Source: a virus (Duplodnaviria > Heunggongvirae > Uroviricota > Caudoviricetes). Taken from it: DNA of 64,000 nucleotides. The notes under the pieces are model-generated. The model did no database searches. It was not told where the DNA came from and saw nothing but the letters and a program-made list of their open reading frames with translations. The translations under genes and the position numbers were made by a program. The stretch lies in IMG/VR virus record IMGVR_UViG_2645727901_000008; one strand, 5' to 3'. Shown here in pieces: positions 4,624 to 29,606 of the stretch (position 1 is the first letter of the stretch; every line of letters begins with the position of its first letter).

Positions 4624-5453
4624 TCGATCACTCCGTTTTGAGTCGTATCAAAATTCCTGGCAGGTATGCAGTAGTAAAGCGAACCAACATGCTGTGTGCC
4701 GTAGCTAAAAATACGGTGCACGTACCACCAGCGGCGGGCTACGCCGTTTACCATCTCTTCATTCCATTCAAGAATTGATCCGACGGGGACGTTATTTGCT
4801 GCAATACGCAGAATCAGAACATCATCGGTTAAGCCATCCTGCTCACCGTCTGCGTCAATCGCATGGAAAGAGTCACGCCCGTCCGGGTTATCCAGCACAT
4901 AAACGATTTCAGGTTCCTGGTAAGTCAGTTCGCGCTGGTTGTTATCCAGTTCAGTGAATGACTCTTCTCCTGTTTCGTCGCTGACTACCCCATATGTGCC
5001 AACATCTGGTCGATATAAGAGAGCCTGAAACGCGTCTGGGCTGGATTCAATAATCAGCATCCAGTCTGCGCGGATTTGGTCGTTAAAGGCTTTATGCCCG
5101 TTATAGCGTGCTTTTAGCTGTGGAGTTGGTTCTCTGCCAGCCAGGGAAGGTGGAAGTATGGCTATATCTGATTCGGCAGCATCCGGAGTAAGGCCAGCGT
5201 TGCTATCAGCAAAATTATCATGGCTATCAGCTTTGGCGGCGGGTTGCTCTTCCAGAATGCTGAATGAATCCGAACCGGTATTGCCATGTTCCGGCGCGCC
5301 TCCTGCATTCGCTTCAATCGGCGCTGGCGTTTCTCTCTGCGTGCTGTCATGTTCTGACTCATTACTTGCCAGGTTTGCATCGTCAGCAAACCATTCGTCA
5401 AAACGGCCCATAAGCATCCTCAAAGGTCGATTTATCAGGTATCGAGGGTGCAT
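4620..5453 (-). CDS. Hypothetical phage protein (277 aa; start may be ATG at 5411)
   Basis: Long ORF; GAGG 6 nt upstream of the internal ATG at 5411. Confidence 0.45.
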   Translation of the reverse strand: MHPRYLINRPLRMLMGRFDEWFADDANLASNESEHDSTQRETPAPIEANAGGAPEHGNTGSDSFSILEEQPAAKADSHDNFADSNAGLTPDAAESDIAILPPSLAGREPTPQLKARYNGHKAFNDQIRADWMLIIESSPDAFQALLYRPDVGTYGVVSDETGEESFTELDNNQRELTYQEPEIVYVLDNPDGRDSFHAIDADGEQDGLTDDVLILRIAANNVPVGSILEWNEEMVNGVARRWWYVHRIFSYGTQHVGSLYYCIPARNFDTTQNGVIE

Positions 5454-5488
5454 TGTCTGGAGATTGTGATTTCAATTCATATCCCAAC

Positions 5489-5536
5489 ATGGGACTAAAG
5501 TGCTTTACATTGTCCCATATTGGGACTACTATACTT
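5489..5536 (+). promoter_or_regulatory. higBA promoter/operator region with nested inverted repeats (ATGGGAC...GTCCCAT, GTCCCA-TAT-TGGGAC) and a TATACT -10-like hexamer
   Basis: Inverted repeats read from sequence directly upstream of the higB RBS. Confidence 0.4.
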
Positions 5537-5556
5537 TCAGAGAGAAGGAATCTGTG

Positions 5557-5859
5557 ATGAAAATAATTTCGGTAAAAACACTAAGGGATTTCTGGGCGAA
5601 GAATCCCGATGCAGAACAGCCATTAAAGGCATGGGTTGATGAAGCAACAAAGGCTGACTGGAAAAATCCGGCTGAGATCAAAGAACAGTACCGGACAGCC
5701 AGCATCCTTAAAAACAGGCGCGTGGTGTTCAATATTAAGGGAAATGATTACAGGTTAATTGTCGCAATTGCTTATCAGCGAGGATGGATGTTCGTTAAGT
5801 TTATTGGAACACATAAGGAATACGATGCCATTGAAGCGGATACAATAGAACTGGAGTAA
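5557..5859 (+). CDS. higB: Type II toxin HigB (RelE-superfamily mRNA interferase)
   Basis: VFNIKGNDYRLIVAIAY...FIGTHKEYD aligns with E. coli HigB VFNVGGNELRVVAMVF...VMTHKEYD; ATG at 5557 with GAGAAGGA RBS. Confidence 0.8.
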   Translation: MKIISVKTLRDFWAKNPDAEQPLKAWVDEATKADWKNPAEIKEQYRTASILKNRRVVFNIKGNDYRLIVAIAYQRGWMFVKFIGTHKEYDAIEADTIELE

Positions 5860-5862
5860 ATC

Positions 5863-6222
5863 ATGAACATTAAACCTATCCGTACAGAACAAGATTATGA
5901 GGCCGCACTGCGTGCGGTCGAACCGATGTTCGATAACGAACCGGAAATGAACACACCGGAAGGCGATTTCTTTGAAGTAATGTGCCTGCTCATTGAAGAG
6001 TACGAGAAAAAGCATTACCCAATTGAGCCACCATCACCTATTGAAGCCATTAAATTCCGTATGGAACAGCAAGGGCTGACCGTGAAGGATCTGGAACCGG
6101 CGATTGGTAAGTCAAATCGAGTTTACGAAGTGCTTAATGGGACACGAAATTTGACGTTACCTATGATTCGTCGTTTACATGCCCAGTTTGGTATTCCACT
6201 GGAAAGTCTGGTTGGTGTTTAA
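5863..6222 (+). CDS. higA: Antitoxin HigA (XRE-type HTH)
   Basis: C-terminal HTH pattern GLTVKDLEPAIGKSNRVYEVLNGTRNLTL resembles HigA; starts 4 nt after higB stop. Confidence 0.8.
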   Translation: MNIKPIRTEQDYEAALRAVEPMFDNEPEMNTPEGDFFEVMCLLIEEYEKKHYPIEPPSPIEAIKFRMEQQGLTVKDLEPAIGKSNRVYEVLNGTRNLTLPMIRRLHAQFGIPLESLVGV

Positions 6223-6284
6223 GTTTGGCGGTCTGGAGGACCGCTTTTTATCTAAAATAAAAATTAGAAGGTTTGATAGCTTGT

Positions 6285-7022
6285 ATGGGCAAAAATTCAT
6301 CAACAGAAAACACATCTACAATTGACTCAATCAAGGGCACAATGGATGAAGCCATAAAAGATAAATTATTTAATAAATTATTTGCATATGTGGTGGTTTC
6401 ATTTTTTGTCGTTAATTGGCAAGAAATACTAATTTTGTTTAAATCTAAATATGATATATACACAACACTGTCTATAGTATGGGTAGGGGATAAATATCAA
6501 ATCCCTTATTTTGGAACCTTCATTGTATCTCCGTTTTTAGCTCACTTTGTGATGCCGTTTATATATGGCACTATTGCGTCCATAGTGATGCCTTATATTA
6601 CTATGCGTATATCAAAACTCACTGGTAGAAATTATGCGCAAATAAGATACATTGACCATGAATTTGACTCAGAAGAGAAAGCAAGAGTAAAGGCGTTGCT
6701 GAGAAACCTAAAGAAAAAAGAGGAAGAGCTTTTAAAATTAGAGGAACAAATAGAAGGTCAACAAAAAATACTGAATACAATCGAAGAAAAGAAGAGAGAG
6801 ATTGAGAGTGCCAGAGTGGCTCTGTATCACGGTATAAAAGTAATTGTTGATATATATAAAGCAAAAGATAAAAGGATTTCCACCAAAGAAGATTTTGCCG
6901 ATTTATTAAAAGCAATTGAAGAAAGTGATTTTTATAAAGACACTGGGTTGTGGGGTATTAATAAATTAATAGATGACGTGGAGACAATATATGAGTCTCA
7001 ATCGACATCAAAGGACAAGTAA
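6285..7022 (+). CDS. AT-rich accessory gene: membrane N-terminus plus coiled-coil C-terminus, unknown function
   Basis: Visibly AT-rich codons; hydrophobic segments then K/E-rich heptad-like region; sits between higBA and a convergent gene. Confidence 0.5.
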   Translation: MGKNSSTENTSTIDSIKGTMDEAIKDKLFNKLFAYVVVSFFVVNWQEILILFKSKYDIYTTLSIVWVGDKYQIPYFGTFIVSPFLAHFVMPFIYGTIASIVMPYITMRISKLTGRNYAQIRYIDHEFDSEEKARVKALLRNLKKKEEELLKLEEQIEGQQKILNTIEEKKREIESARVALYHGIKVIVDIYKAKDKRISTKEDFADLLKAIEESDFYKDTGLWGINKLIDDVETIYESQSTSKDK

Positions 7023-7055
7023 TATAAAAGGCGGGATAACCGCCTTTGTTGTAAA

Positions 7056-8252
7056 TTAAGAACCTTTCTTCACATACTCCATGAACATTTTTTCAGCTTG
7101 TGCAGGTGGTGTTCCTGCCATGACCAGCGCATCAATGAACGCCTGCTTCTTCAGTGCGAACTGATCGGCCAGGCGTTGCTGAAGCTCCTTGTTTTTCTGT
7201 TTCTCACGTTGCAACGCCGCTTCTTTTGCTGCCGCCCGTTTTTTCTGTGCGTCTGACAACTTTCTGGCCTTGGTCAGTTGGTCACGTAGCTTGTCAATCT
7301 TGCCGTTGTCCTTTGCCAGTTTTGTGCTTAAAGCGGCCTGGCGCTTCTGATAGAGCCTCCATTCGCGCTTGGCAGCGTCAACGTTTGTTTTACTGTTGCG
7401 ATTGCGATTAAACTCCCTCTCGTCTTCTTTTGAGAAGTGTTTGGTTGTACGGCGGCGATCGTCACCAAATGCAATTTGCGTTGCGGCCTTTTGTAACGCA
7501 CGAGCAATACTCATTTGCCAACTAGCGGACTGTAACCGCGTCATTGAGTGGATCACGTGTTTACAGGCGACGCCTTGTAGCTTAGGGTTACGAACTTTTG
7601 GATAGGCGTATTCTTTTGGCGGGGCCAGGGCAAAGTTACCCGCAGTAGCGATGTAACGATACCAGTATTGATGACGACCACAGTCACAATCGAAAGACAC
7701 CCGCCCGGCGCACAGTGATTTAGTGATTTTCAGAGCTGATTTATCGTCTTCTGCGATGTCATCGACCATCTGATCCCATTCTTCAAAGCGTATCCGGACG
7801 ATATGGTGCTGGTGGACGGATATATCCGATGCTTCTACGCGGATATGAATCACGTTGTGGCGAAGAGATACGGGTGTAGCTCTTTTGATACCAGATCCGT
7901 CATCCACGGCGTTATTTGCACGCTTAATATCGATTGCCTGGCTGGATGCCACCAGCTGGGCGTATGTGATGCCAGCCGTCTTGCTGTCATATTTTTCGCG
8001 TGTTTTACTCCGTAGCTTTTCGAAACCTTTCAGGTCGTCTCGCGTGAAGAACGTGCCGCCTTTTTTCTTCCCTAACTTGAGAATATCTTCGGCGGATTTG
8101 TTCCTCAGTCTACCTGGCGTCAGCGTCCGGTGAGCTTGTCGGCGCTTACGGGTTTGTTCTTTCCTGATAAGGTCGAATAAACGCGTGAAGTCCTTAGAGG
8201 ACAGGCCGTCAGTGATATAGCGCCCGTCCTGGTTTTTCAGGAAATCAGGCAT
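7056..8252 (-). CDS. Hypothetical protein (398 aa) with CxC...CxH zinc-finger-like motif and basic coiled-coil N-terminus
   Basis: Long ORF; FDCDCGRHQYW...ACKHVIH motif seen in translation. Confidence 0.5.
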   Translation of the reverse strand: MPDFLKNQDGRYITDGLSSKDFTRLFDLIRKEQTRKRRQAHRTLTPGRLRNKSAEDILKLGKKKGGTFFTRDDLKGFEKLRSKTREKYDSKTAGITYAQLVASSQAIDIKRANNAVDDGSGIKRATPVSLRHNVIHIRVEASDISVHQHHIVRIRFEEWDQMVDDIAEDDKSALKITKSLCAGRVSFDCDCGRHQYWYRYIATAGNFALAPPKEYAYPKVRNPKLQGVACKHVIHSMTRLQSASWQMSIARALQKAATQIAFGDDRRRTTKHFSKEDEREFNRNRNSKTNVDAAKREWRLYQKRQAALSTKLAKDNGKIDKLRDQLTKARKLSDAQKKRAAAKEAALQREKQKNKELQQRLADQFALKKQAFIDALVMAGTPPAQAEKMFMEYVKKGS

Positions 8253-8574
8253 TTTCTATCTCCGGTTCCGCGCTCGCGTAATCACGGATCTTGTTCCTCA
8301 GCCATGCCACATCAGGAAGAGTTAACGTGGTCCCGGCGGGCATTTCTTCCATTTCTGACTCATGGCCCACCAGCACCCGGAATACCCAGCGCAAATCTGC
8401 ATTGCCATACGCCCTGTAGGCTGCAAGGTCTGAACGATATACTTCATCAATCTTTATCGTGTACTGGAAATTATCAGAGTGATACTCCGATACCCGCTTA
8501 ATCATTTCCTGGTGAAACAGCGCACGAAAAATATCGTCTTCAATGTACCTATCGTCGAGTCTGCTATAGCCCAT
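8245..8574 (-). CDS. Hypothetical protein (109 aa)
   Basis: ORF overlapping downstream gene start by 8 nt, consistent with coupling. Confidence 0.4.
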   Translation of the reverse strand: MGYSRLDDRYIEDDIFRALFHQEMIKRVSEYHSDNFQYTIKIDEVYRSDLAAYRAYGNADLRWVFRVLVGHESEMEEMPAGTTLTLPDVAWLRNKIRDYASAEPEIENA

Positions 8575-8767
8575 AACAAAGCCTCTCAGTCATAACATGG
8601 GGGAAACTGTATGCAGGGTGTGAAATGCGAGAAACAGACAGGCCACCAGTTCAGGGGGATGTGGTTCATAAATCCCCTCACTGGTGACAAGTGACTTTCA
8701 TTAATCTTTATGCGGGGGCCAGCTTCATTTGCTGGCATTAGATTAAAAATTAAACGGAGTGAATGAC

Positions 8768-8902
8768 ATGGATGTTATTCTAGAATTGTTAAAGCTTATT
8801 GATCTGTTTATGAACGCCTCATTGACCACTCAAATACTGGCGTCAATATTTTTGTTACTCTTCTACCTGGTATTGAGGGAGTTAACAAAGCTACTAATGT
8901 GA
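8768..8902 (+). CDS. Small hydrophobic peptide (44 aa), candidate membrane peptide
   Basis: ATG at 8768 preceded by GGAG; translation MDVILELLKLIDLFMNASLTTQILASIFLLLFYLVLRELTKLLM; below ORF-track size cut-off. Confidence 0.3.
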   Translation: MDVILELLKLIDLFMNASLTTQILASIFLLLFYLVLRELTKLLM

Positions 8903-9556
8903 TCAAAGTATCACGGTATCTTCATCAACTTCTTTCCCAGCCAGTGACTTTGGCTGGGAGGTGCCTGCTTTAACTTTTTCATGCCCAATAATGGAAAGGA
9001 ACGAAGCGAGTATGCCTGTTTTTTGCTCTTTCTCGACTGTACCGGTCATCTGCTCTACATAATCTGCACTGGCAACGTTGTGGTATACGGTCGCGTAGCA
9101 ACACAGGATCATCAGAATATGCTCCGGCCTGATATCCTGCCAGTTCACCCTGTAGACTTCTTCTCCGTTACCGTTGTATTCGGTATCAACGATAGAGTCG
9201 GGGATTTCGAAAGCACCTTTGTTATTTTGCGGCAGGGATAATAGTTTCTGGAGTTTTAACTCTCTGTATCTTTCCATCCCGACGATGATTGCTGCTCTTC
9301 CATCGGCATGACGGGTCTTGAGAGTCACCTGACTTGCTCCGGTGCCAGCGGAGATCGTTGGCGTAATTTCGTCTACCAGTACCTTAAATTTGCTTTTCCG
9401 CAGGGCTGCTATAGCTGGAGGAATTTTTTGCTTTTGCTCCAATGCTGACGCGGGAAGGGGTTTTACTTCGTTAATAATGAGAGCACCGTCTTTCAGTATT
9501 GCAGTGAGCATTTGAGGCTTGCTGGTGGTCAGGCTGAATATTGCGATCTTTTCCAT
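8903..9556 (-). CDS. Hypothetical protein (start at internal ATG 9556 with GGAGGAAGG RBS)
   Basis: ORF with strong RBS at the internal Met (MEKIAIFSL...). Confidence 0.5.
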   Translation of the reverse strand: MEKIAIFSLTTSKPQMLTAILKDGALIINEVKPLPASALEQKQKIPPAIAALRKSKFKVLVDEITPTISAGTGASQVTLKTRHADGRAAIIVGMERYRELKLQKLLSLPQNNKGAFEIPDSIVDTEYNGNGEEVYRVNWQDIRPEHILMILCCYATVYHNVASADYVEQMTGTVEKEQKTGILASFLSIIGHEKVKAGTSQPKSLAGKEVDEDTVIL

Positions 9557-9824
9557 TGTCCTTCCTCCACGGATGACGGATACAAAAAAAGGCCGCACAT
9601 GGCGGCCTGCTTTGGCGTTATGACTCCCTACCGCGCTTCGGCTGAAAGTTAATCGTCAAAAGAACCTTCAACGGGAGCCGTTAGCGCGATGGATTATGTG
9701 CAGTTTGTGATTTCCAAAATAGTGTCAACCACTTTTTGTGGATTTTATTTTTTGACCGAAATTTGGCCTAAATCATGTTGATGTAGTTAATTGTTTTTAT
9801 AACATAAAACTTCATTTTGTTTAC

Positions 9825-10448
9825 ATGAAGGATGGTGTAGTGAAGTTAAGGGTTTTAGGGGCCGCGCTCGCGGCTATGTTGGGATGCGTATCTGCTAATA
9901 CTGCCAATGCAACTGCGTTACCTGCACAATTCAGGGCAGGGCAGCAGGTTATGAATAATGCTGGTGGGGATCATTCACAAGCGGCCATTATGGACTTTTG
10001 CAAGAGGGAGGGCATTCCATTACGGCCTGTTGGAACTCAGTTTATTGGTAAAACTGACTTTTGCGTTTTTGCATATACAGCATATCTGACGGACAAAGCT
10101 ATAACAAAAACAGGTTATTCAACCAAAGATACTCTTTCCAGATTAAGTCAGGGATGGCAGCAATTCGAAGTGTATCGCCAGCAAGGATTAGGTGAGTTAT
10201 TGCAACCACTTTTTATGCTTGCGTTGGTGCCCGAGGGGCAGCAATTTTTGGTTAAAAAGGGAATGCTTCGCCAAAGTGATATTGCCGGGTTCGATAGCAT
10301 GATGGCTTATGAGCGCAAACTAACCGAGCAGCGAAATAAAAAACCATCTGCTTCATGTGTGCAAAGTAAAACAGCAGAATACAGTGCAGTAGCCGGGCCT
10401 TTAGCCAAACAAATGGCAGAGCAATGGTGTAAAAAATACGGGCAATAA
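9825..10448 (+). CDS. Secreted protein with N-terminal signal peptide, unknown function
   Basis: LRVLGAALAAMLGCVSANTANA signal-like N-terminus. Confidence 0.5.
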   Translation: MKDGVVKLRVLGAALAAMLGCVSANTANATALPAQFRAGQQVMNNAGGDHSQAAIMDFCKREGIPLRPVGTQFIGKTDFCVFAYTAYLTDKAITKTGYSTKDTLSRLSQGWQQFEVYRQQGLGELLQPLFMLALVPEGQQFLVKKGMLRQSDIAGFDSMMAYERKLTEQRNKKPSASCVQSKTAEYSAVAGPLAKQMAEQWCKKYGQ

Positions 10449-10468
10449 GTTACGCAGCGGAGGCAGAA

Positions 10469-10861
10469 TTGAAAAGATTGACTATTGCTTTACTGGCGTC
10501 TTTCCCTTTGATCGCGAGCGCCGGAAATTTACAAGTTAAGTGCGGTCGGTTTGATATAAAAATCTATCCAGATGCCATATTTCTGAATGGGAATAAGGTT
10601 GATAACGTACACCGAAAAACTAAATCTGACGTAATGAGCTATGTGTTCCAGGAGTATGCGGAGATGGGGGGAACTTACACGCTGTACTCGCTGGATGTTC
10701 CTTCTCGCGGTGATATGACATTATCCCATCAATGGCAGAACGCCGATGGCGAAGCTCTGCGCGAAGTTAAAACAGAAAAATGCGGCACTTTCCATTCTTT
10801 TAAAGGGAAAGTGCCAAATGTTAAATCTGTGCTTGAAAAACAGCGCGCAGGTGATTTTTAA
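10469..10861 (+). CDS. Secreted/periplasmic protein with signal peptide, unknown function
   Basis: MKRLTIALLASFPLIASAG signal-like N-terminus. Confidence 0.55.
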   Translation: MKRLTIALLASFPLIASAGNLQVKCGRFDIKIYPDAIFLNGNKVDNVHRKTKSDVMSYVFQEYAEMGGTYTLYSLDVPSRGDMTLSHQWQNADGEALREVKTEKCGTFHSFKGKVPNVKSVLEKQRAGDF

Positions 10862-10884
10862 ACTGCGTTAGCACTTTGAACATG

Positions 10885-10927
10885 GCGACAACACATCTTG
10901 GTGGCTGCGTTGTCGCTGTATGTTTTT
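10885..10927 (+). terminator. Rho-independent terminator after the two secreted-protein genes
   Basis: GCGACAAC...GTTGTCGC stem followed by TGTATGTTTTT. Confidence 0.5.
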
Positions 10928-10949
10928 ATAATATAAAGCATTAAAGTTT

Positions 10950-11567
10950 TCATTTTTGTCGGATCTTTTCCAGCATATTTAATTCATTATCACTTTCTGC
11001 TGCTGAGACGGTTGGCCTCACATTTCCGAAATATTTCCTGTGAGACTCATGACTTATGTATTCACCGACAGTTTCATTCTTGAATATACGAATTTGACAT
11101 ATGCGAGATCCAACAATAAGTTCTACAGGGCTATTCCCATGATTAAATAACTCTAAAGATATACAGCCTCTGTACCCTGGTTGTATCATGGTATTTAATG
11201 AAAGACCAAGCCTTGTATAGCTGCTTCTGGACAATACATCAGCGTAGCAATCTGGTGGCAAACAAACATATTCTAATGTTGTTGCCAGTACCACTTGATT
11301 CGGGTAAACAATGAATCTATCCCCAAGATCTCTCCTTGTTTCCTGGAAAAATGTTCTGATTGGTTGATGAGTATCATTGTTTTTTGATGGAATTAACTCT
11401 ATTGACGGCTTCCTTGTCATAATAGACACTAAAAAATCGTAACCAAGTCTAAGGTCTATGGTGAAGTTCCCAATTTGGTTTTTATTTAGAAGAGGTTCAA
11501 TGAACAACGACTCAGGTTCTTCTGATTCATAATATTGCAGCAATTCAGCTTTGCTTAGGAGATTCAT
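10950..11567 (-). CDS. dCTP deaminase-fold (Dcd/dUTPase-superfamily) protein
   Basis: IDLRLG, VYPNQVVLATTLEYVCLP, SSYTRLGLSLN and QPGYRGCISLELFNHGNSPVELIVGSRICQIRIF align motif-by-motif with E. coli Dcd as I recall it; ATG at 11567 overlaps upstream stop (ATGA). Confidence 0.65.
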   Translation of the reverse strand: MNLLSKAELLQYYESEEPESLFIEPLLNKNQIGNFTIDLRLGYDFLVSIMTRKPSIELIPSKNNDTHQPIRTFFQETRRDLGDRFIVYPNQVVLATTLEYVCLPPDCYADVLSRSSYTRLGLSLNTMIQPGYRGCISLELFNHGNSPVELIVGSRICQIRIFKNETVGEYISHESHRKYFGNVRPTVSAAESDNELNMLEKIRQK

Positions 11568-12637
11568 TGTGCACTCCATTTTTCAAGAATCATTACGTTT
11601 CGAATCGATTTTTCAACCAAATCATTTATAGTTTTTTCTATGGCTTCTTGTGACAACCCAGACCATATACCCGTAGGTTTTTCCCATTCAGAGCATAAGT
11701 ACTGCCAGCTGCTGTTAATAAAAGCATGCATTTCATTGTGGTCGCGAATAACAAAAGGACGCACATTATCAAAAGCTGATTTCACATCAAGCAAAGGTGT
11801 CGGCAATGTCAAACAAGGAGAAATAATCTGCCCACCATTATGTAAGGCTGATATCACAGCATTGAACATGCCAACAACTGGATTTTCCACTTTGTTCAAA
11901 AAGTCGCTTACAATTTTAACTCTATCTTCTGTGGATGGGTGAGTATAGCTTGCAGGATGAGAGCCAGCTAATTTGTATAAGAAATCTACCCCACTTTTTC
12001 CAATAAATTGGGCACTAAATAGATCTGCAAAATATTCTCTGCAATGATTTATCCAAATAACATCAGGTAGATTACTCCATTCTGGTCCAGGAAGTGTGCC
12101 TTTGTCCTTGGAACGATAGTTAAGACAGGCAAGCTCAGAAATACCTTTGCTAATATCAACGAAATGTCCCAATTCGTGATATAAAGGTATAGAGCATAAT
12201 GGTCGTCTTCTGTACATTTCAGGTAATGAAATCTGAATTAATTCGACATCGAATTTGACATTTAAAACTTCGTCAAATAAAGAATACAAATTCTTGTTTA
12301 CAGACTTAAAATAAAACCCATGCATATCTGGAGATAGGGCTGTGGTTATAAGTGTTTTTTCACTTATCCATTTTTTACAGGCATCATTTAAGCAATAGAC
12401 AATCTCGTAGGGAATTTTCTTTGTAGTACTGCCAGTGAAAAAATTAACTGCATCGGTGATAAAAAAAGTACAATCCGCAATTATTTTATCAGCAACATTC
12501 ACATGGTTTTCATAGAGCTTATCCACCGCTTCTTGTAGAACAGCAAGATATTCATGCATGTCTTTAGAAAAATAGGGAGATTCTGATATCTCCCTTAGCT
12601 TATTTCGAACTAATGTAAGTTGTGTAAATGCAAGCAT
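11564..12637 (-). CDS. HExxH zinc-metallopeptidase-like protein (357 aa)
   Basis: YHELGHFVD motif with downstream acidic/His residues; start ATG overlaps upstream stop by 1 nt. Confidence 0.5.
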   Translation of the reverse strand: MLAFTQLTLVRNKLREISESPYFSKDMHEYLAVLQEAVDKLYENHVNVADKIIADCTFFITDAVNFFTGSTTKKIPYEIVYCLNDACKKWISEKTLITTALSPDMHGFYFKSVNKNLYSLFDEVLNVKFDVELIQISLPEMYRRRPLCSIPLYHELGHFVDISKGISELACLNYRSKDKGTLPGPEWSNLPDVIWINHCREYFADLFSAQFIGKSGVDFLYKLAGSHPASYTHPSTEDRVKIVSDFLNKVENPVVGMFNAVISALHNGGQIISPCLTLPTPLLDVKSAFDNVRPFVIRDHNEMHAFINSSWQYLCSEWEKPTGIWSGLSQEAIEKTINDLVEKSIRNVMILEKWSAQ

Positions 12638-12942
12638 TAAATGTACTCTAATACATTCCGGGCCATTACGGGTTCTAACATATCTTCGCTAGTTACTTTG
12701 GTTAGCACCTGGGCGAGCGCCTTAGTGTGGCGTATCTCTACCGCGAGCGAGATGGACTCTCTGTGAGAAGGAATCTGTAATTGATCACCTTTATCTACAC
12801 TTAAGTTTGAGGCTTCTCTGATCACCTCATAAACCCGTAACTTTAACTGCTGTGACACTTCTTGTTGAGATGCTATAAGCTGAAGTACAGTCTTGATCAA
12901 CTTCAAAGAATCAGAAGCTTGCTGAGGAACCGCATAGAGCAT
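12637..12942 (-). CDS. Small helical protein (101 aa), first gene of the three-gene cassette
   Basis: ATG at 12942 with GGAGGGG RBS; coupled to the next gene. Confidence 0.5.
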   Translation of the reverse strand: MLYAVPQQASDSLKLIKTVLQLIASQQEVSQQLKLRVYEVIREASNLSVDKGDQLQIPSHRESISLAVEIRHTKALAQVLTKVTSEDMLEPVMARNVLEYI

Positions 12943-13077
12943 AACCCCTCCTTTCCCTTATCTATAACCGCTTTCTTTTTTCTGTGTATGTTAAAAGTAG
13001 AAGCGGTTTTTACCTTTTGTAATATATATAGTGTCTAAAACTAACTTTGGCACTATATATGGCATGATATCTATGTT

Positions 13078-13123
13078 TTAAAGACACAAAAGCTCTGTTA
13101 AAACAGAGCTTTTGTGTCTTTAA
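13078..13123. repeat. Perfect 17-bp-stem palindrome AAGACACAAAAGCTCTG-TTAAAA-CAGAGCTTTTGTGTCTT upstream of the three-gene cassette
   Basis: Read directly from sequence; no flanking U-tract on either strand. Confidence 0.6.
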
Positions 13124-13267
13124 CTTGATCATTTTCTCGCTGAAGTGTATGTCAGGCTTAGCTCATAATCAAGTTGCTTCCAAGCTAAAAATGAGCTAGC
13201 TCCCTGAAACACTAAGAGCGGGGTGTTTCATTTATTAGCGTTGGGCCTGACGGTGTGTAGGTGAATT

Positions 13268-13555
13268 TTAGCTCATTACTCGATAACGACGGGGAATGGA
13301 ATTCTCCATCAGGCCACGAATTACTCCCGCCTCACGTAGTTCCTCTGTCTCCCAGTATCTGTTTGTCACCAGATCGAGGCTGGCTATGACCTTGTGCCGG
13401 TCATTCGGCATAGCTAATTTTTCTGCTATAACCATCAGTGAAAACTCTTCATCCAGTAGAATTTGATAGCAGTTTTTTGATAGTTCCACTTCCCTTATGA
13501 GACTGAAACGTCGCTGGATTGTGGCAGTAGAGTAAGTGAAATCTATTTTCTTCAT
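13268..13555 (-). CDS. Hypothetical protein (95 aa)
   Basis: ORF in track; no motif recognised. Confidence 0.4.
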   Translation of the reverse strand: MKKIDFTYSTATIQRRFSLIREVELSKNCYQILLDEEFSLMVIAEKLAMPNDRHKVIASLDLVTNRYWETEELREAGVIRGLMENSIPRRYRVMS

Positions 13556-13574
13556 CGTGCGGAGAATCCGATTA

Positions 13575-13600
13575 TTTAGCAGTTAAAGCCCCGGACAGGC
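13575..13600 (-). terminator. GC-rich hairpin (GCCCCGG-ACAG-CCGGGGC) after antirepressor-like gene
   Basis: Hairpin read from sequence; near-identical hairpin follows the second copy at 51537-51555. Confidence 0.4.
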
Positions 13601-13614
13601 CGGGGCAACAGTAA

Positions 13615-14541
13615 TTAACTAACAATCCAGTCCATAGCAACCATATCCTCTGGCGCTAAATCAATAGCATGGATTTTCCCATCCCGGATAGTGCGCCAGT
13701 GCTTCCTTGATCCGCCTTCGGGCCATACCCATACACCTTCAGACCATGAGGCGCGACGGCATACCGTTGCATATCCACTTCTGATCTTCTCTCTGGCGGT
13801 ATGCAGTGACAGATTATCTTTTGGGATTTCCGGTAAAGGATGATGGATTGCCTGAAACAGCCCCATCTTGGGATGATACCAGCGTTTGTTGCGTGGTTCT
13901 GCCTCCGACATAACCTGCTTGAAGGCTTTCTGGAAGGGGGCCAGGGCCACAATGGAGCGTCGCGCAAGCAAACCATCTGGAGTTAAAAACTCATGCGTAT
14001 CGGTGGGAATCCGGAAAGCGTTAACCAGGTTGCGACATTTGGCTTCGGTCAGGCCACATTTCGCCGCCAGCTGGCGGTAGCCAATGTAGCCTTCCGGAAT
14101 ATTGCCTTTCTTTATTTGCTCGAGTGTTTCAGCGACCATCGATACTTGTGCTGATACCTCGGCTACCTGGGCATTTACGGCGTTGATCCGGCGTTCATGC
14201 TCAAGATGCATTTGCGCCATTTCAGCCAGGATTTCGGCTTTTGATTTTAACTGTACCCGGGCATTCTCCAGTTCGCGCCAGCGGTCCACCAGCCGGGCGG
14301 TGAATTCGGGAGAGAGCTGCGCGACGACGACAATACTATCGCGCTTGCCTTGCTCGCCTTCGAAGACGTAATAGCTCGCCGGGCGGCCTGCGGTGGGCTT
14401 TTCCTCAATTTGAGGAAAAGATATTACGCCCCGTTCCGCCAGGTGTTCAATGGTGCGTTTAACGTTATCAGGGCGCTTACCTACCAGTTCCGCGATCTCA
14501 ATGCTGGTCATTGTCGCTTTTTGAGAGATGGACAGATTCAT
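13615..14541 (-). CDS. Rha-family regulator / antirepressor-like protein with C-terminal DUF2829-like extension (fused form)
   Basis: N-terminus MTSIEIAELVGKRPDNVKRTIE is Rha-like; C-terminus homologous to the separate 66-aa ORF at 51564-51764; start overlaps upstream stop. Confidence 0.65.
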   Translation of the reverse strand: MNLSISQKATMTSIEIAELVGKRPDNVKRTIEHLAERGVISFPQIEEKPTAGRPASYYVFEGEQGKRDSIVVVAQLSPEFTARLVDRWRELENARVQLKSKAEILAEMAQMHLEHERRINAVNAQVAEVSAQVSMVAETLEQIKKGNIPEGYIGYRQLAAKCGLTEAKCRNLVNAFRIPTDTHEFLTPDGLLARRSIVALAPFQKAFKQVMSEAEPRNKRWYHPKMGLFQAIHHPLPEIPKDNLSLHTAREKIRSGYATVCRRASWSEGVWVWPEGGSRKHWRTIRDGKIHAIDLAPEDMVAMDWIVS

Positions 14542-14756
14542 CAGTGCGCCTCCACGCAGTTCATCGGCAGATTCCAGTAATTGAGGATCTCCATCGCATC
14601 AAGAGTGAAGCGAGCAGCAAAAATGCAGGGTTCTTCGGGAAGGTATGAGCGCGCCTCTGCTTCGGTAGCAGCCATGACGCAGATATACAGGTGTTTTTGG
14701 CAGGAATAGAAACGCCAGATAAATTCAGAATGAGTTGGGGTAGGGATAGTAGCCAT
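14541..14756 (-). CDS. Icd-like small protein (assigned by position upstream of the antirepressor-like gene)
   Basis: 71 aa; AAGGAGG RBS; paralog of ORF at 52468-52692; same order as P1 icd-ant. Confidence 0.4.
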   Translation of the reverse strand: MATIPTPTHSEFIWRFYSCQKHLYICVMAATEAEARSYLPEEPCIFAARFTLDAMEILNYWNLPMNCVEAH

Positions 14757-15067
14757 ATTGGCAGCCTCCTTTGACTAAGTTAAGGAGCTACCGCGTGAGG
14801 TTCCAATCTCAATGGCGGTAGCACTGACTGGGTTGGAACTACCGGCGTCAAAGGGAACCGGCCTGCCTTTCGGCAGCCCAGCCAGCACTACCATTGATCT
14901 CTGAGCTAAACGCTACGTATGGCTGTGCGATGGCATGACACAAAAAAAGACGCTTTCGGCGTCTGTGTCGCCTTTGACATTATCCGGGGTTCCAATCCCG
15001 GCACCCGTTTTTCTAAGGTGCCGTAGAAATATACCCCACGATAATGCCAGGGCGCAACAGTCAGTAT

Positions 15068-15238
15068 TTTATGCTTTGGCGGATTTCTTCCGGGCTTGCT
15101 TGCAGGCGTAGGCCATTGCTTTAGCTTTCACTTCATCCAGCTTCCCGGTGATCGCTTCTTTTCCGAGAGTGACAAACCAGTCATAGCAACCGCCAGTGAT
15201 GTTCTGGATTTGAAAGTTGAGGTAGCGAACGGTCATTT
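15068..15238 (-). CDS. Possible small protein (about 56 aa)
   Basis: Minus-strand ORF with GGGGTG RBS; below ORF-track cut-off. Confidence 0.2.
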
Positions 15239-15567
15239 TGACACCCCCAGCGCGAGTAAAGAATGCAGATTATCGCGTGAGTGGCGGACAACGAGTGATG
15301 GGAAAAGACAGTAGCTGTTCATAGTGTAGTGACTCCTTGCTTTCGGAGCCGCCATCGACTGTTCCACGGTCTGGTGGCGGCGCAATAAAGGCTGGAACAC
15401 CGTGAGTCAACGGGGGCTTTTCAGCCACCTATATTGCACCGCCATAGGTATAGCGGCGGCAATAATACGAAAAACTAAACAGTTTGTCTCAAAAAGTTGA
15501 CCGGTGTGCCAATCGGTAGTGAATGTACATCGGAGAAATTTACAATTCAACTTAAAATGTTAGAAAA

Positions 15568-16146
15568 CTAATTTATCAATTCAATCGCCATCTGATACAA
15601 CGTCATTTCATCGGCATTGTGCCGCATGAAATCTGCTTTTCCGCCTATTTTTCCGTCAGCATGAACAGGGACCAGCCAGGGATATTGTTCTCGGACCTCG
15701 GCTGGCGCTGCGTACTGGTGGTGCCATTTACACAAAGGGAGGACATATTTATGCGCGTTCTCTGCCGTTCTCCCGAAGATATGGTGCAGGGATACTACTG
15801 GGCTATGTTGTCCGTGAATATGGCAGGCAATGCAGGGGAGAGTACCGATAGCGGTCTGTATCCGGCGTTCATCAGCTGTGAGTGATCTGCCCTTCAGGCC
15901 GCGTGACGTGCGTGTTTTTTTGGGCGGAGCGGATACAGCTTTATCTTTTCTCCGCTGTTCATATTGCTTTGCTTTTTCAATTTTCTTTTGCCGATATTCA
16001 GGCGATGCGGCTTTTTCTCTCGCTCGCTGCTGCTGGCGTTGAGCTTGTTGAAGGCGCTTTGCCCTTTGTTCCTCTCGCCAGGCCGGGTCAGCCAATTTTT
16101 GCATGGCTTTTTGTCTCTGTTTCTCCCAATAGCTCTGTTTCTGCAT
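15568..16146 (-). CDS. ref: Ref-like HNH endonuclease (recombination enhancement function)
   Basis: Basic N-terminal region plus CIACHIHG...SLHHI...CKWHHQYAAPAEVREQYPWLVPVHADG as in P1 Ref. Confidence 0.8.
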   Translation of the reverse strand: MQKQSYWEKQRQKAMQKLADPAWREEQRAKRLQQAQRQQQRAREKAASPEYRQKKIEKAKQYEQRRKDKAVSAPPKKTRTSRGLKGRSLTADERRIQTAIGTLPCIACHIHGQHSPVVSLHHIFGRTAENAHKYVLPLCKWHHQYAAPAEVREQYPWLVPVHADGKIGGKADFMRHNADEMTLYQMAIELIN

Positions 16147-29111: not shown

Positions 29112-29606
29112 TTATAACTTTTCGTACTGAAGCGGTGAACGCTTAATTTCAAAGTGGCCTTCCGATGTGCTACCAAAGCCACCAGCACCACGTTCCGTTT
29201 CGTTGAGTTCCTCAACCTCGACTAGTGAGACTTGTTCAACACGCTCAAAAATGCCTTGCATGACAGCCATTCCTGGCTTGAGACAAACGCCTTCCCCGCC
29301 GGGATCAGTAATCAGTTTTGCCATGATTTCACCGCGATAATCGGAGTCGATAATTCCTACGCAGTTAGCCAGGCGAGTATGTTTTTTGCAGCCCAATCCG
29401 GATCGCGGATAGAGTTTCAGACACCAGCCGGGCGGGATCTCCATAGCCAGTCCGGTATACACCCACCAGCTTGAGGAAATTGCACCATTGCTATCGACGC
29501 ATGTTTTTATTTCAACAGCCTCAAAATCCATCGCCGCCGATCCGGAGGTGGCATAAGCTGGAAGTTTTGCTGCCGGATGTAGGCGTTTCACTTTTACGTA
29601 AATCAT
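29112..29606 (-). CDS. dut: dUTP diphosphatase
   Basis: GIIDSDYRGE and RGAGGFGSTS dUTPase motifs. Confidence 0.85.
   Translation of the reverse strand: MIYVKVKRLHPAAKLPAYATSGSAAMDFEAVEIKTCVDSNGAISSSWWVYTGLAMEIPPGWCLKLYPRSGLGCKKHTRLANCVGIIDSDYRGEIMAKLITDPGGEGVCLKPGMAVMQGIFERVEQVSLVEVEELNETERGAGGFGSTSEGHFEIKRSPLQYEKL

Follow-up and report, generated by a model that had tools for sequence, protein, structure and literature searches.

Depletion of the nucleotide pool is an established antiviral strategy in both bacteria and humans, and to our knowledge it has so far been encountered solely with enzymes of the cytidine-deaminase fold and with HD-domain enzymes. The subject of the present work is a group of three genes, here called A, B and C, which lies in a 64,000-nucleotide stretch of viral DNA (Caudoviricetes; IMG/VR record IMGVR_UViG_2645727901_000008; the whole stretch is called the window below) and which combines a small helical protein (A), a zinc metallopeptidase (B) and a Dcd-fold protein resembling deoxycytidine triphosphate (dCTP) deaminase (C). 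Among the described systems, the defensive dCTP deaminase is a 576-amino-acid (aa) protein that joins a kinase to a Zn-dependent cytosine-deaminase fold (Tal et al., bioRxiv 10.1101/2021.04.26.441389); deamination of dCTP is a proven defence strategy, with an enzyme that is unrelated to C (bioRxiv 10.1101/2021.04.26.441389). That enzyme and AvcD/AvcI are found, like A-B-C, beside defence systems, and they would share with it the dCTP starvation that we propose as the outcome and an effector that we propose to be held inactive until infection. However, they are controlled by themselves or by a small RNA, while the module considered here consists of a Dcd/dUTPase β-barrel protein, a zinc protease and a small protein.

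An earlier note, made from the letters of this DNA, had not recognised the pairing of B and C as any described defence, anti-defence or toxin-antitoxin system and had stated that the described depletion defences use another fold. Both statements hold up. The pairing matches no PADLOC model, no description of a system with a Dcd-fold protein and a zincin was found in the searchable literature, the enzyme of Tal et al. has the architecture given above, and Pfam detects neither a cytidine-deaminase fold nor a kinase or P-loop domain in A, B or C.

Our proposal is that the three genes of the segment form a self-contained and mobile conflict module, most likely a defence against phages or other mobile genetic elements, which is carried as a moron by a D6-like phage-plasmid, and we estimate the probability of this reading at roughly 55%. 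Within it, we infer the substrate, the toxicity, the cleavage partners, the trigger and the defence phenotype. The genes and the segment that carries them are the following:

10950-11567, minus strand: gene C, Dcd-fold dCTP-deaminase-like protein, 205 aa (Pfam, TIGR02274 and PDB matches)
11564-12637, minus strand: gene B, predicted cytosolic gluzincin metallopeptidase of a new family, 357 aa (motif conservation and structure model)
12637-12942, minus strand: gene A, small helical protein, 101 aa (open reading frame (ORF) call; homology by iterated hidden Markov model (HMM) search)
10864-13280, no strand assigned: inserted segment, 2,417 bp (BLASTN against the sister plasmid L002, and low GC content)

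The stop codon of A and the start codon of B overlap at base 12637, and the stop of B and the start of C form the sequence ATGA at 11564-11567. The ORF listing also offers an alternative upstream ATG for C at 11579; the 205-aa start was adopted because the RefSeq call and the conserved N-terminus of the homologues agree on it.

C matches Pfam DCD at 1.2e-30, scores 113.4 bits against TIGR02274 (cut-off 92.8) and matches Dcd chains in the PDB down to 1.8e-16 (1e-16 for 4xjc and 1e-14 for 1xs1), so that its predicted fold is that of the Dcd/dUTPase superfamily. It shares with the housekeeping Dcd enzymes (TIGR02274; PDB 1xs1, 4xjc) not only the fold, but also the catalytic residues: R114, S115, R119 and E139 of C correspond to R110, S111, R115 and E138 of E. 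coli Dcd and are invariant in 53/53 homologues, and the C-terminal Lys-Tyr of the E. coli enzyme is likewise invariant in all 53 members of the subfamily. The aromatic residue that stacks on the deoxyribose is also retained. The differences concern the loop 121-126, which is shorter in C, and the Asp of motif 3 (Asp128 of E. coli, in IDPGW), which is replaced by Gln in 52 of the 53 proteins (Q129 in C) and by His in the remaining one, Asp being found in none. The motif-3 Asp binds the 3'-OH and, in the bifunctional enzymes, activates the water for the hydrolysis of deoxyuridine triphosphate (dUTP). Since this residue is lost and the catalytic residues are kept, C is predicted to be a monofunctional deoxycytidine-nucleotide deaminase.

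It is also important to consider the setting of the enzyme. Unlike the housekeeping Dcd, C is a mobile second copy in an operon with B and A, and the host genomes already possess a canonical dcd; this context argues against a housekeeping role. At a Burkholderiales locus (L062), a canonical double-domain dCTP deaminase of 392 aa (DCD_N, DCD and DCD_C; 4943-6121) is located 3 kb upstream of A-B-C, and the C of that module is therefore a second paralogue. In the window itself there is a dUTPase ORF at 29112-29606 on the minus strand, of the canonical trimeric type with the motif GIIDSDYRGE, which is part of the D6 backbone and is not linked to the cassette, a distance of 16 kb separating the two.

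B has the sequence HELGH at residues 154-158, and the HExxH motif is present in 53/53 of the B homologues that were checked. H154, E155, H158 and E201 are invariant, E201 and D205 being part of an HRxEYFAD helix. An AlphaFold2 model calculated with 63 sequences has a predicted local distance difference test (pLDDT) score of 94.8 and displays a zincin core (three strands, the HExxH helix and the Glu helix) flanked by N- and C-terminal helical domains. In this model, helix 151-164 bears the HExxH motif and helix 192-212 bears E201, and the three-stranded sheet precedes them. The motif and the model together identify B as a predicted gluzincin, that is, a protein with HExxH and a third-ligand Glu on a later helix, and the protease looks active by the same prediction.

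B represents a new zincin family. Its score against Pfam M48 is 16.1 bits, below the cut-off of 20.3, and the match covers just the C-terminal third of the profile; unlike the M48-type gluzincins BepA and HtpX, B is a cytosolic protein with helical domains of its own at both termini. Foldseek returned no relative of the structure model, and no close solved or viral structure. An HMMER search over 1.84 billion representative sequences yielded 580 relatives of B, 218 of them at E < 1e-30. We have also considered B as a relative of CapP and the M78 peptidases, but hhalign against 14 neighbouring CapP proteins gave a probability of 3.6%, and this option was rejected. The pairs CapP/CapH, ImmA/ImmR and IrrE/DdrO are nevertheless instructive, as they too place an HExxH zinc peptidase beside a small partner that may be its substrate, with palindromic operators upstream. 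The differences are that B has no detectable M78 homology, that A is mildly acidic and lacks a recognisable helix-turn-helix (HTH), and that cleavage is in the present case a proposal.

For A, the mildly acidic character follows from a count of the charged residues in the sequence. The N-terminus MLYAVPQ is conserved, with the consensus MLAAxP across Proteobacteria, and by iterated HMM search A is homologous in all proteobacterial loci. In Bacteroidota an ORF of the same size occupies the position of A and constitutes a sister family with marginal profile similarity. A word-indexed search found 10 close homologues. Pfam matches of A to LacI-HTH and to Csx1/Crn1 have E values of 0.015-0.09 and were taken as noise.

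The module travels across phyla: a scan of 100,044 species genomes resulted in 50 loci, from alpha-, beta-, gamma- and deltaproteobacteria and from Bacteroidota. C follows directly after B in 49 of them, and an ORF of 95-125 aa lies directly upstream of B in nearly all. The same A-B-C order with overlapping genes is found around the B homologues of Dickeya, Aeromonas and Rhizobium. The pairing of B with C is hence conserved and not accidental. One locus that seemed to contain B only (L060) was rejected as such, the apparent absence of C being due to a gap in gene calling. A metagenomic protein of 631 aa (P0333) joins B (residues 12-397) and a DCD domain (residues 425-586), and could represent a genuine B-C fusion or the artefact of a frameshift.

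The three proteins are not conserved to the same extent. The identity between homologues is 55-82% for C and 32-67% for B, and A is also less conserved than C. For a near-identical E. coli allele (L066, 5077-6162, compared to 11567-12637 of the window), the identity is 99% in A and 100% in C, but only 90% in B, where 36 substitutions and a 4-aa indel fall almost entirely in residues 38-250 around the catalytic cleft. This pattern suggests recombination, or else rapid evolution, that has been limited to the protease. A conserved effector combined with a variable sensor is typical of defence systems, and we have counted the conservation of C together with the variability of B in favour of defence, C being the conserved effector and B the variable sensor.

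The window belongs to a D6-like phage-plasmid, and from 13.3 to 31.7 kb it is 96% identical to phage D6, with weaker matches to P1 and P7. In the sister plasmid L002, 31 bp stand in place of 10864-13280: the BLASTN blocks equate 8841-10863 of the window with 4042-6064 of L002, and 13281-16000 with 6096-8814. The GC content is 0.34-0.39 over the cassette and 0.44-0.56 in the flanks. No direct repeats or att-like junctions were seen at the ends of the insert on reading the sequence. The insert is located directly downstream of the ant/icd immunity genes, and the cassette is present in 12 of the 46 related plasmids that share the flank. Among 5,426 complete E. coli genomes it occurs in eight, each time on a plasmid of 90-109 kb. 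In INPHARED no phage, D6 included, has a match to the cassette at the DNA or protein level, and just 3 of the 2.9 million IMG/VR contigs encode relatives of B. These observations support the cassette being a horizontally acquired accessory insert.

The reading of this region in the earlier note can thus largely be retained. Three overlapping minus-strand genes had been described, and all of them are in the sequence at the positions given above; the zincin and the Dcd-fold enzyme that had been assigned from motifs are borne out by the conservation of HExxH and the confident model, and by the Pfam, TIGR02274 and PDB matches, respectively; and the dut gene is indeed canonical by its motif. The cassette is more AT-rich than its surroundings, as had been remarked, and the proposal of a horizontally inserted moron agrees with the 31 bp at the site in L002, with the variable presence across the related phage-plasmids and with the absence from D6.

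Some further observations concern the surroundings of the insert. A 95-aa ORF at 13268-13555 (minus strand) has its 3' end altered by the insertion: the cassette-free plasmids have a counterpart of 103 aa, homology begins at 13281, and the C-termini differ. There is a second variable spot ca 2 kb from the cassette (8634-8841 of the window, 3163-4042 of L002), where L002 has an extra RelE/ParE-HigA toxin-antitoxin pair and the window has some 200 bp; farther upstream, L001 has a HigB/HTH pair. In the Salmonella plasmids NZ_MK356557.1 and NZ_MK356558.1, the cassette DNA is 89-92% identical, and B is 50-57% identical by tblastn and broken up in several places. These two copies are probably decaying or mosaic.

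The putative regulatory elements of the cassette, all within the insert, are the following:

10885-10927, plus strand: terminator-like hairpin with a T-run (-20.2 kcal/mol, z score -3.9), at the downstream edge of the insert
12945-12954, minus strand: Shine-Dalgarno-like sequence AAAGGAGGGG, read from the sequence, directly upstream of the ATG of A
13024-13060, minus strand: second inverted repeat, ATATATAGTG...CACTATATAT, overlapping a -10-like TATAGT and conserved in Dickeya and Aeromonas
13078-13123, minus strand: perfect palindrome with 22-nt arms (13078-13099 and 13102-13123)
13128-13155, minus strand: promoter-like site CTGACA-16-AATGAT, matching the consensus, with a -35 region TTGACATA conserved in Dickeya and Aeromonas

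Both the hairpin at 10885-10927 and the palindrome are much stronger than shuffled controls. The minus-strand version of the hairpin (-19.8 kcal/mol, z score -5.1) has no U-run, and because the T-run is found on the plus strand alone, the hairpin would mainly halt transcription coming from the flanking plus-strand gene. It is predicted to be a terminator-like barrier to read-through. The earlier note had placed a terminator here, and the hairpin is real.

The palindrome was likewise correctly recognised as perfect, although its stem is not of 17 bp, but of 21 bp (-31.1 kcal/mol, z score -9.2). Its core AGCTCTG-N6-CAGAGCT is kept upstream of A in all gammaproteobacterial copies, Aeromonas included, and in Dickeya the palindrome is nearly identical, though the proteins differ by 18-37%. 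The palindrome is present in L001, L003-L006 and L066 only. A LexA box was considered and rejected on account of the spacing, which is CTG-N6-CAG and not N10, and a repeated element was rejected as the core is unique in the window. Since the sequence itself is conserved, and not merely the stem, we read the palindrome and the repeats as operators that travel with the genes; the role of an insulator, proposed before, can be upheld only in part. The palindrome is thus a putative element, probably an operator or a 5' regulatory element.

The genomic neighbourhood provides further information. A-B-C is found in integrase islands, on plasmids and in a Tn7-like element beside gyrB-dnaN-dnaA, and its neighbours at different loci are type I restriction-modification (R-M) genes, SIR2 with VapBC, and RES-Xre with AbiEii. 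On the Emticicia oligotrophica plasmid pEMTOL01 (L065, 7489-9583), A-B-C is inserted between hsdR and hsdS/hsdM, with no Bub operon; the anticodon nuclease PrrC likewise sits inside its R-M locus. We have scanned 281 ORFs, namely the nearest three on each side of A-B-C; these were called mechanically and include some antisense artefacts in high-GC genomes, and for the key loci the database gene calls were used. The Pfam families found were ThiF (12 times), Prok-JAB (9), Multi_ubiq (8), DUF6527 (3), Prok-E2_E (2) and Peptidase_M78 (10, with HTH proteins). The PADLOC matches were capP (10 times), capH, E1-E2 (8), type I R-M and a cyclase of the cyclic-oligonucleotide-based antiphage signalling system (CBASS) with a TIR effector.

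The most frequent of these associations is with Bub-type operons, which comprise the ubiquitin-like BubA, an E2, the DUF6527/BubE peptidase and a ThiF-type E1 that may or may not be accompanied by JAB. Such an operon adjoins A-B-C in 22 loci, and in 20 of the 36 that have at least 6 kb on both sides (counted from a BLAST cluster of ThiF-type E1 proteins, with a Pfam check on representatives), in several gene orders. In Methylotenera, BubE, BubCD and BubAB share a strand and diverge from HTH, M78, A, B and C on the other. In Agrobacterium fabrum pAt1 (L064, 4977-9634), BubAB-BubCD-BubE-A-B-C is co-directional and SIR2 comes next, while the genes for CapP, CapH, a GNAT protein and a regulator diverge from this run. 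In Bacteroidota, A-B-C is convergent with capP-capH, which in turn is divergent from BubA-BubBD-BubE. At two loci (L061 and L032), CapH/CapP are directly upstream of A-B-C in the same orientation. Bub-linked and stand-alone copies are mixed on the tree of C, in both phyla. In the 64 kb of the window, tblastn detected none of the Bub components and neither CapH nor CapP.

The reverse association is weak, as the module is found on only 3 of the 110 plasmids with a Bub-type E1. The idea of a conserved downstream effector slot in every Bub operon is also unsupported, because three other Bub plasmids that were inspected have no module. Two side observations can be added. In Type I Bub loci of alpha- and gammaproteobacteria, the divergent arm contains, beside CapH/CapP, a GNAT acetyltransferase and a small regulator of the RHH/DUF1778 type (L064, 2574-4814; L069, 746-4915), which look like a GNAT toxin-antitoxin pair. 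On the Methylomagnum plasmid (L069, 7870-8884), where A-B-C is missing, the genes after the Bub operon are a 60-aa ORF and one for a SprT-like zincin, that is, another metalloprotease in the slot that A-B-C fills in Agrobacterium.

For Bub operons, the conjugation chemistry and the protease activity of BubE have been demonstrated (Ye et al., bioRxiv 10.1101/2024.11.21.623953), and CapH and CapP stand beside 31% of 544 such operons (bioRxiv 10.1101/2024.11.21.623953). The words deaminase and dCTP are absent from that paper, from a second study (EMBO J 2026, PMC13373217) and from the companion paper on ubiquitin-like proteins. A deaminase likewise goes unmentioned in the paper on CapK/CapS. Mobile-element and defence-island settings are common to the Bub operons with CapH/CapP and to the present module; however, none of A, B and C is among the Bub components, a profile comparison shows B to be unrelated to CapP, and most Bub operons have no module.

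The mechanism that we propose is as follows. C would be the effector and, as a trimer of the Dcd fold, would deaminate dCTP to dUTP, and the collapse of the dCTP pool together with the rise of dUTP would block the replication of the invading genome. The exchange of the motif-3 Asp for Gln would abolish any dUTP-hydrolysing side activity of C. The zinc protease B and the small helical protein A, with its conserved N-terminal peptide, would gate C, and two schemes can be envisaged. In one, a trigger would cause B to cleave A or the tail of C; in the other, B would keep A short-lived, such that a shut-off of host expression would release C. The operon would be under its own promoter and the conserved palindromic operators. 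In many other genomes, the Bub operon and the DNA-damage regulators CapH/CapP would constitute an extra layer of control on A-B-C.

An extension of this proposal is that A-B-C is a functional partner of Bub conjugation, as its missing effector arm or as a target of conjugation, in which case the BubA tag, or recognition of the tag by B, would switch on C. E1/E2/JAB genes regulate CBASS, and SprT/Wss1 proteases are ubiquitin/SUMO-directed; the partnership is conceived by analogy with these two cases. We put it forward tentatively, as something that may well turn out otherwise.

Several other explanations have been considered. A-B-C could be an addiction module of the toxin-antitoxin kind, with C as the toxin, A as the labile antitoxin and B as a dedicated protease, stabilising mobile elements and having no primary anti-phage role. 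The overlapping genes and the small acidic first gene resemble such a layout, A-B-C is always on mobile DNA, and HigBA, RelE/HigA, VapBC and RES-Xre pairs are nearby. However, many chromosomal copies are in the R-M or Bub/CapHP settings typical of defence and the host plasmids have several toxin-antitoxin pairs already, so we regard this as unlikely, with the reservation that the line between toxin-antitoxin and abortive infection is thin and the explanation overlaps in part with the defence that we favour. Similarly improbable, in our judgement, is that the module is the output of a DNA-damage stress response governed by Bub and CapH/CapP, remodelling the deoxynucleotide pool after genotoxic stress, with the stand-alone copies as escaped fragments. 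The 20 of 36 loci at Bub operons, the co-oriented CapH/CapP upstream in L061 and L032 and the six-gene co-directional run in Agrobacterium would fit with this, as would the lack of a demonstrated phage phenotype for Bub operons, whose authors raise a stress response as an option (bioRxiv 10.1101/2024.11.21.623953; PMC13373217). Against it, stand-alone copies are common, with every catalytic residue present and with a conserved promoter and operators of their own, one copy sits within type I R-M genes where Bub is absent, and the count of 3 in 110 plasmids given above is low.

An auxiliary role in nucleotide metabolism, in which C would feed dUTP to the Dut of the element for conversion to deoxythymidine triphosphate and A and B would be incidental, draws on the score of C above the equivalog cut-off and on the presence of dut. 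It is very hard to reconcile with C being accompanied by B in 49/50 loci, with the absence of the cassette from D6 and from 34 of the 46 sister plasmids, with the position of dut on the D6 backbone 16 kb away, with the near absence from viral contigs (3 of 2.9 million) and with the Asp-to-Gln hallmark that sets C apart from the housekeeping enzymes, and we give it very little weight. The same holds for an anti-defence module directed at host immunity, whose cytosine-nucleotide signal or protein sensor it might, for instance, destroy. Phages use both proteases and nucleotide-modifying enzymes against defence systems, and the cassette is directly downstream of the ant/icd immunity region of a temperate element. 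The distribution is overwhelmingly chromosomal and plasmid-borne, though, and not viral, and the neighbours are host defence genes and not phage early genes. Both of these explanations fit the distribution poorly.

It is important to point out that a number of results speak against the anti-phage or anti-element defence that we prefer. The interaction of A, B and C is deduced from synteny, gene overlap and a single fusion, and a frameshift in sequencing could have produced the latter. The structure model of A, with five helices, is weak (pLDDT 55). PADLOC gave no credible match for A, B or C, and nothing ties them to a validated system. The cassette is rare, at 0.15% of the complete E. coli genomes, and C clears the NCBIfam equivalog cut-off of the housekeeping dCTP deaminase, which makes a metabolic role possible on sequence alone. 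Finally, none of the Bub operons gave E. coli protection against phage (bioRxiv 10.1101/2024.11.21.623953), and the later study states once more that such protection has yet to be demonstrated (EMBO J 2026, PMC13373217).

If the defence reading is correct, a protease-controlled effector with the Dcd/dUTPase fold would represent an independent invention of nucleotide depletion. The copy on the E. coli phage-plasmid, being only 2.4 kb in size, stand-alone and in a tractable host, offers a convenient experimental entry. If, in addition, the tentative partnership with Bub were true, this copy would be the minimal, Bub-independent form of the module, and A-B-C would provide the first testable biological output for Bub operons. 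The presence of the module beside Bub in over half of the well-flanked loci, in two phyla, is a lead to the output or the target of Bub.

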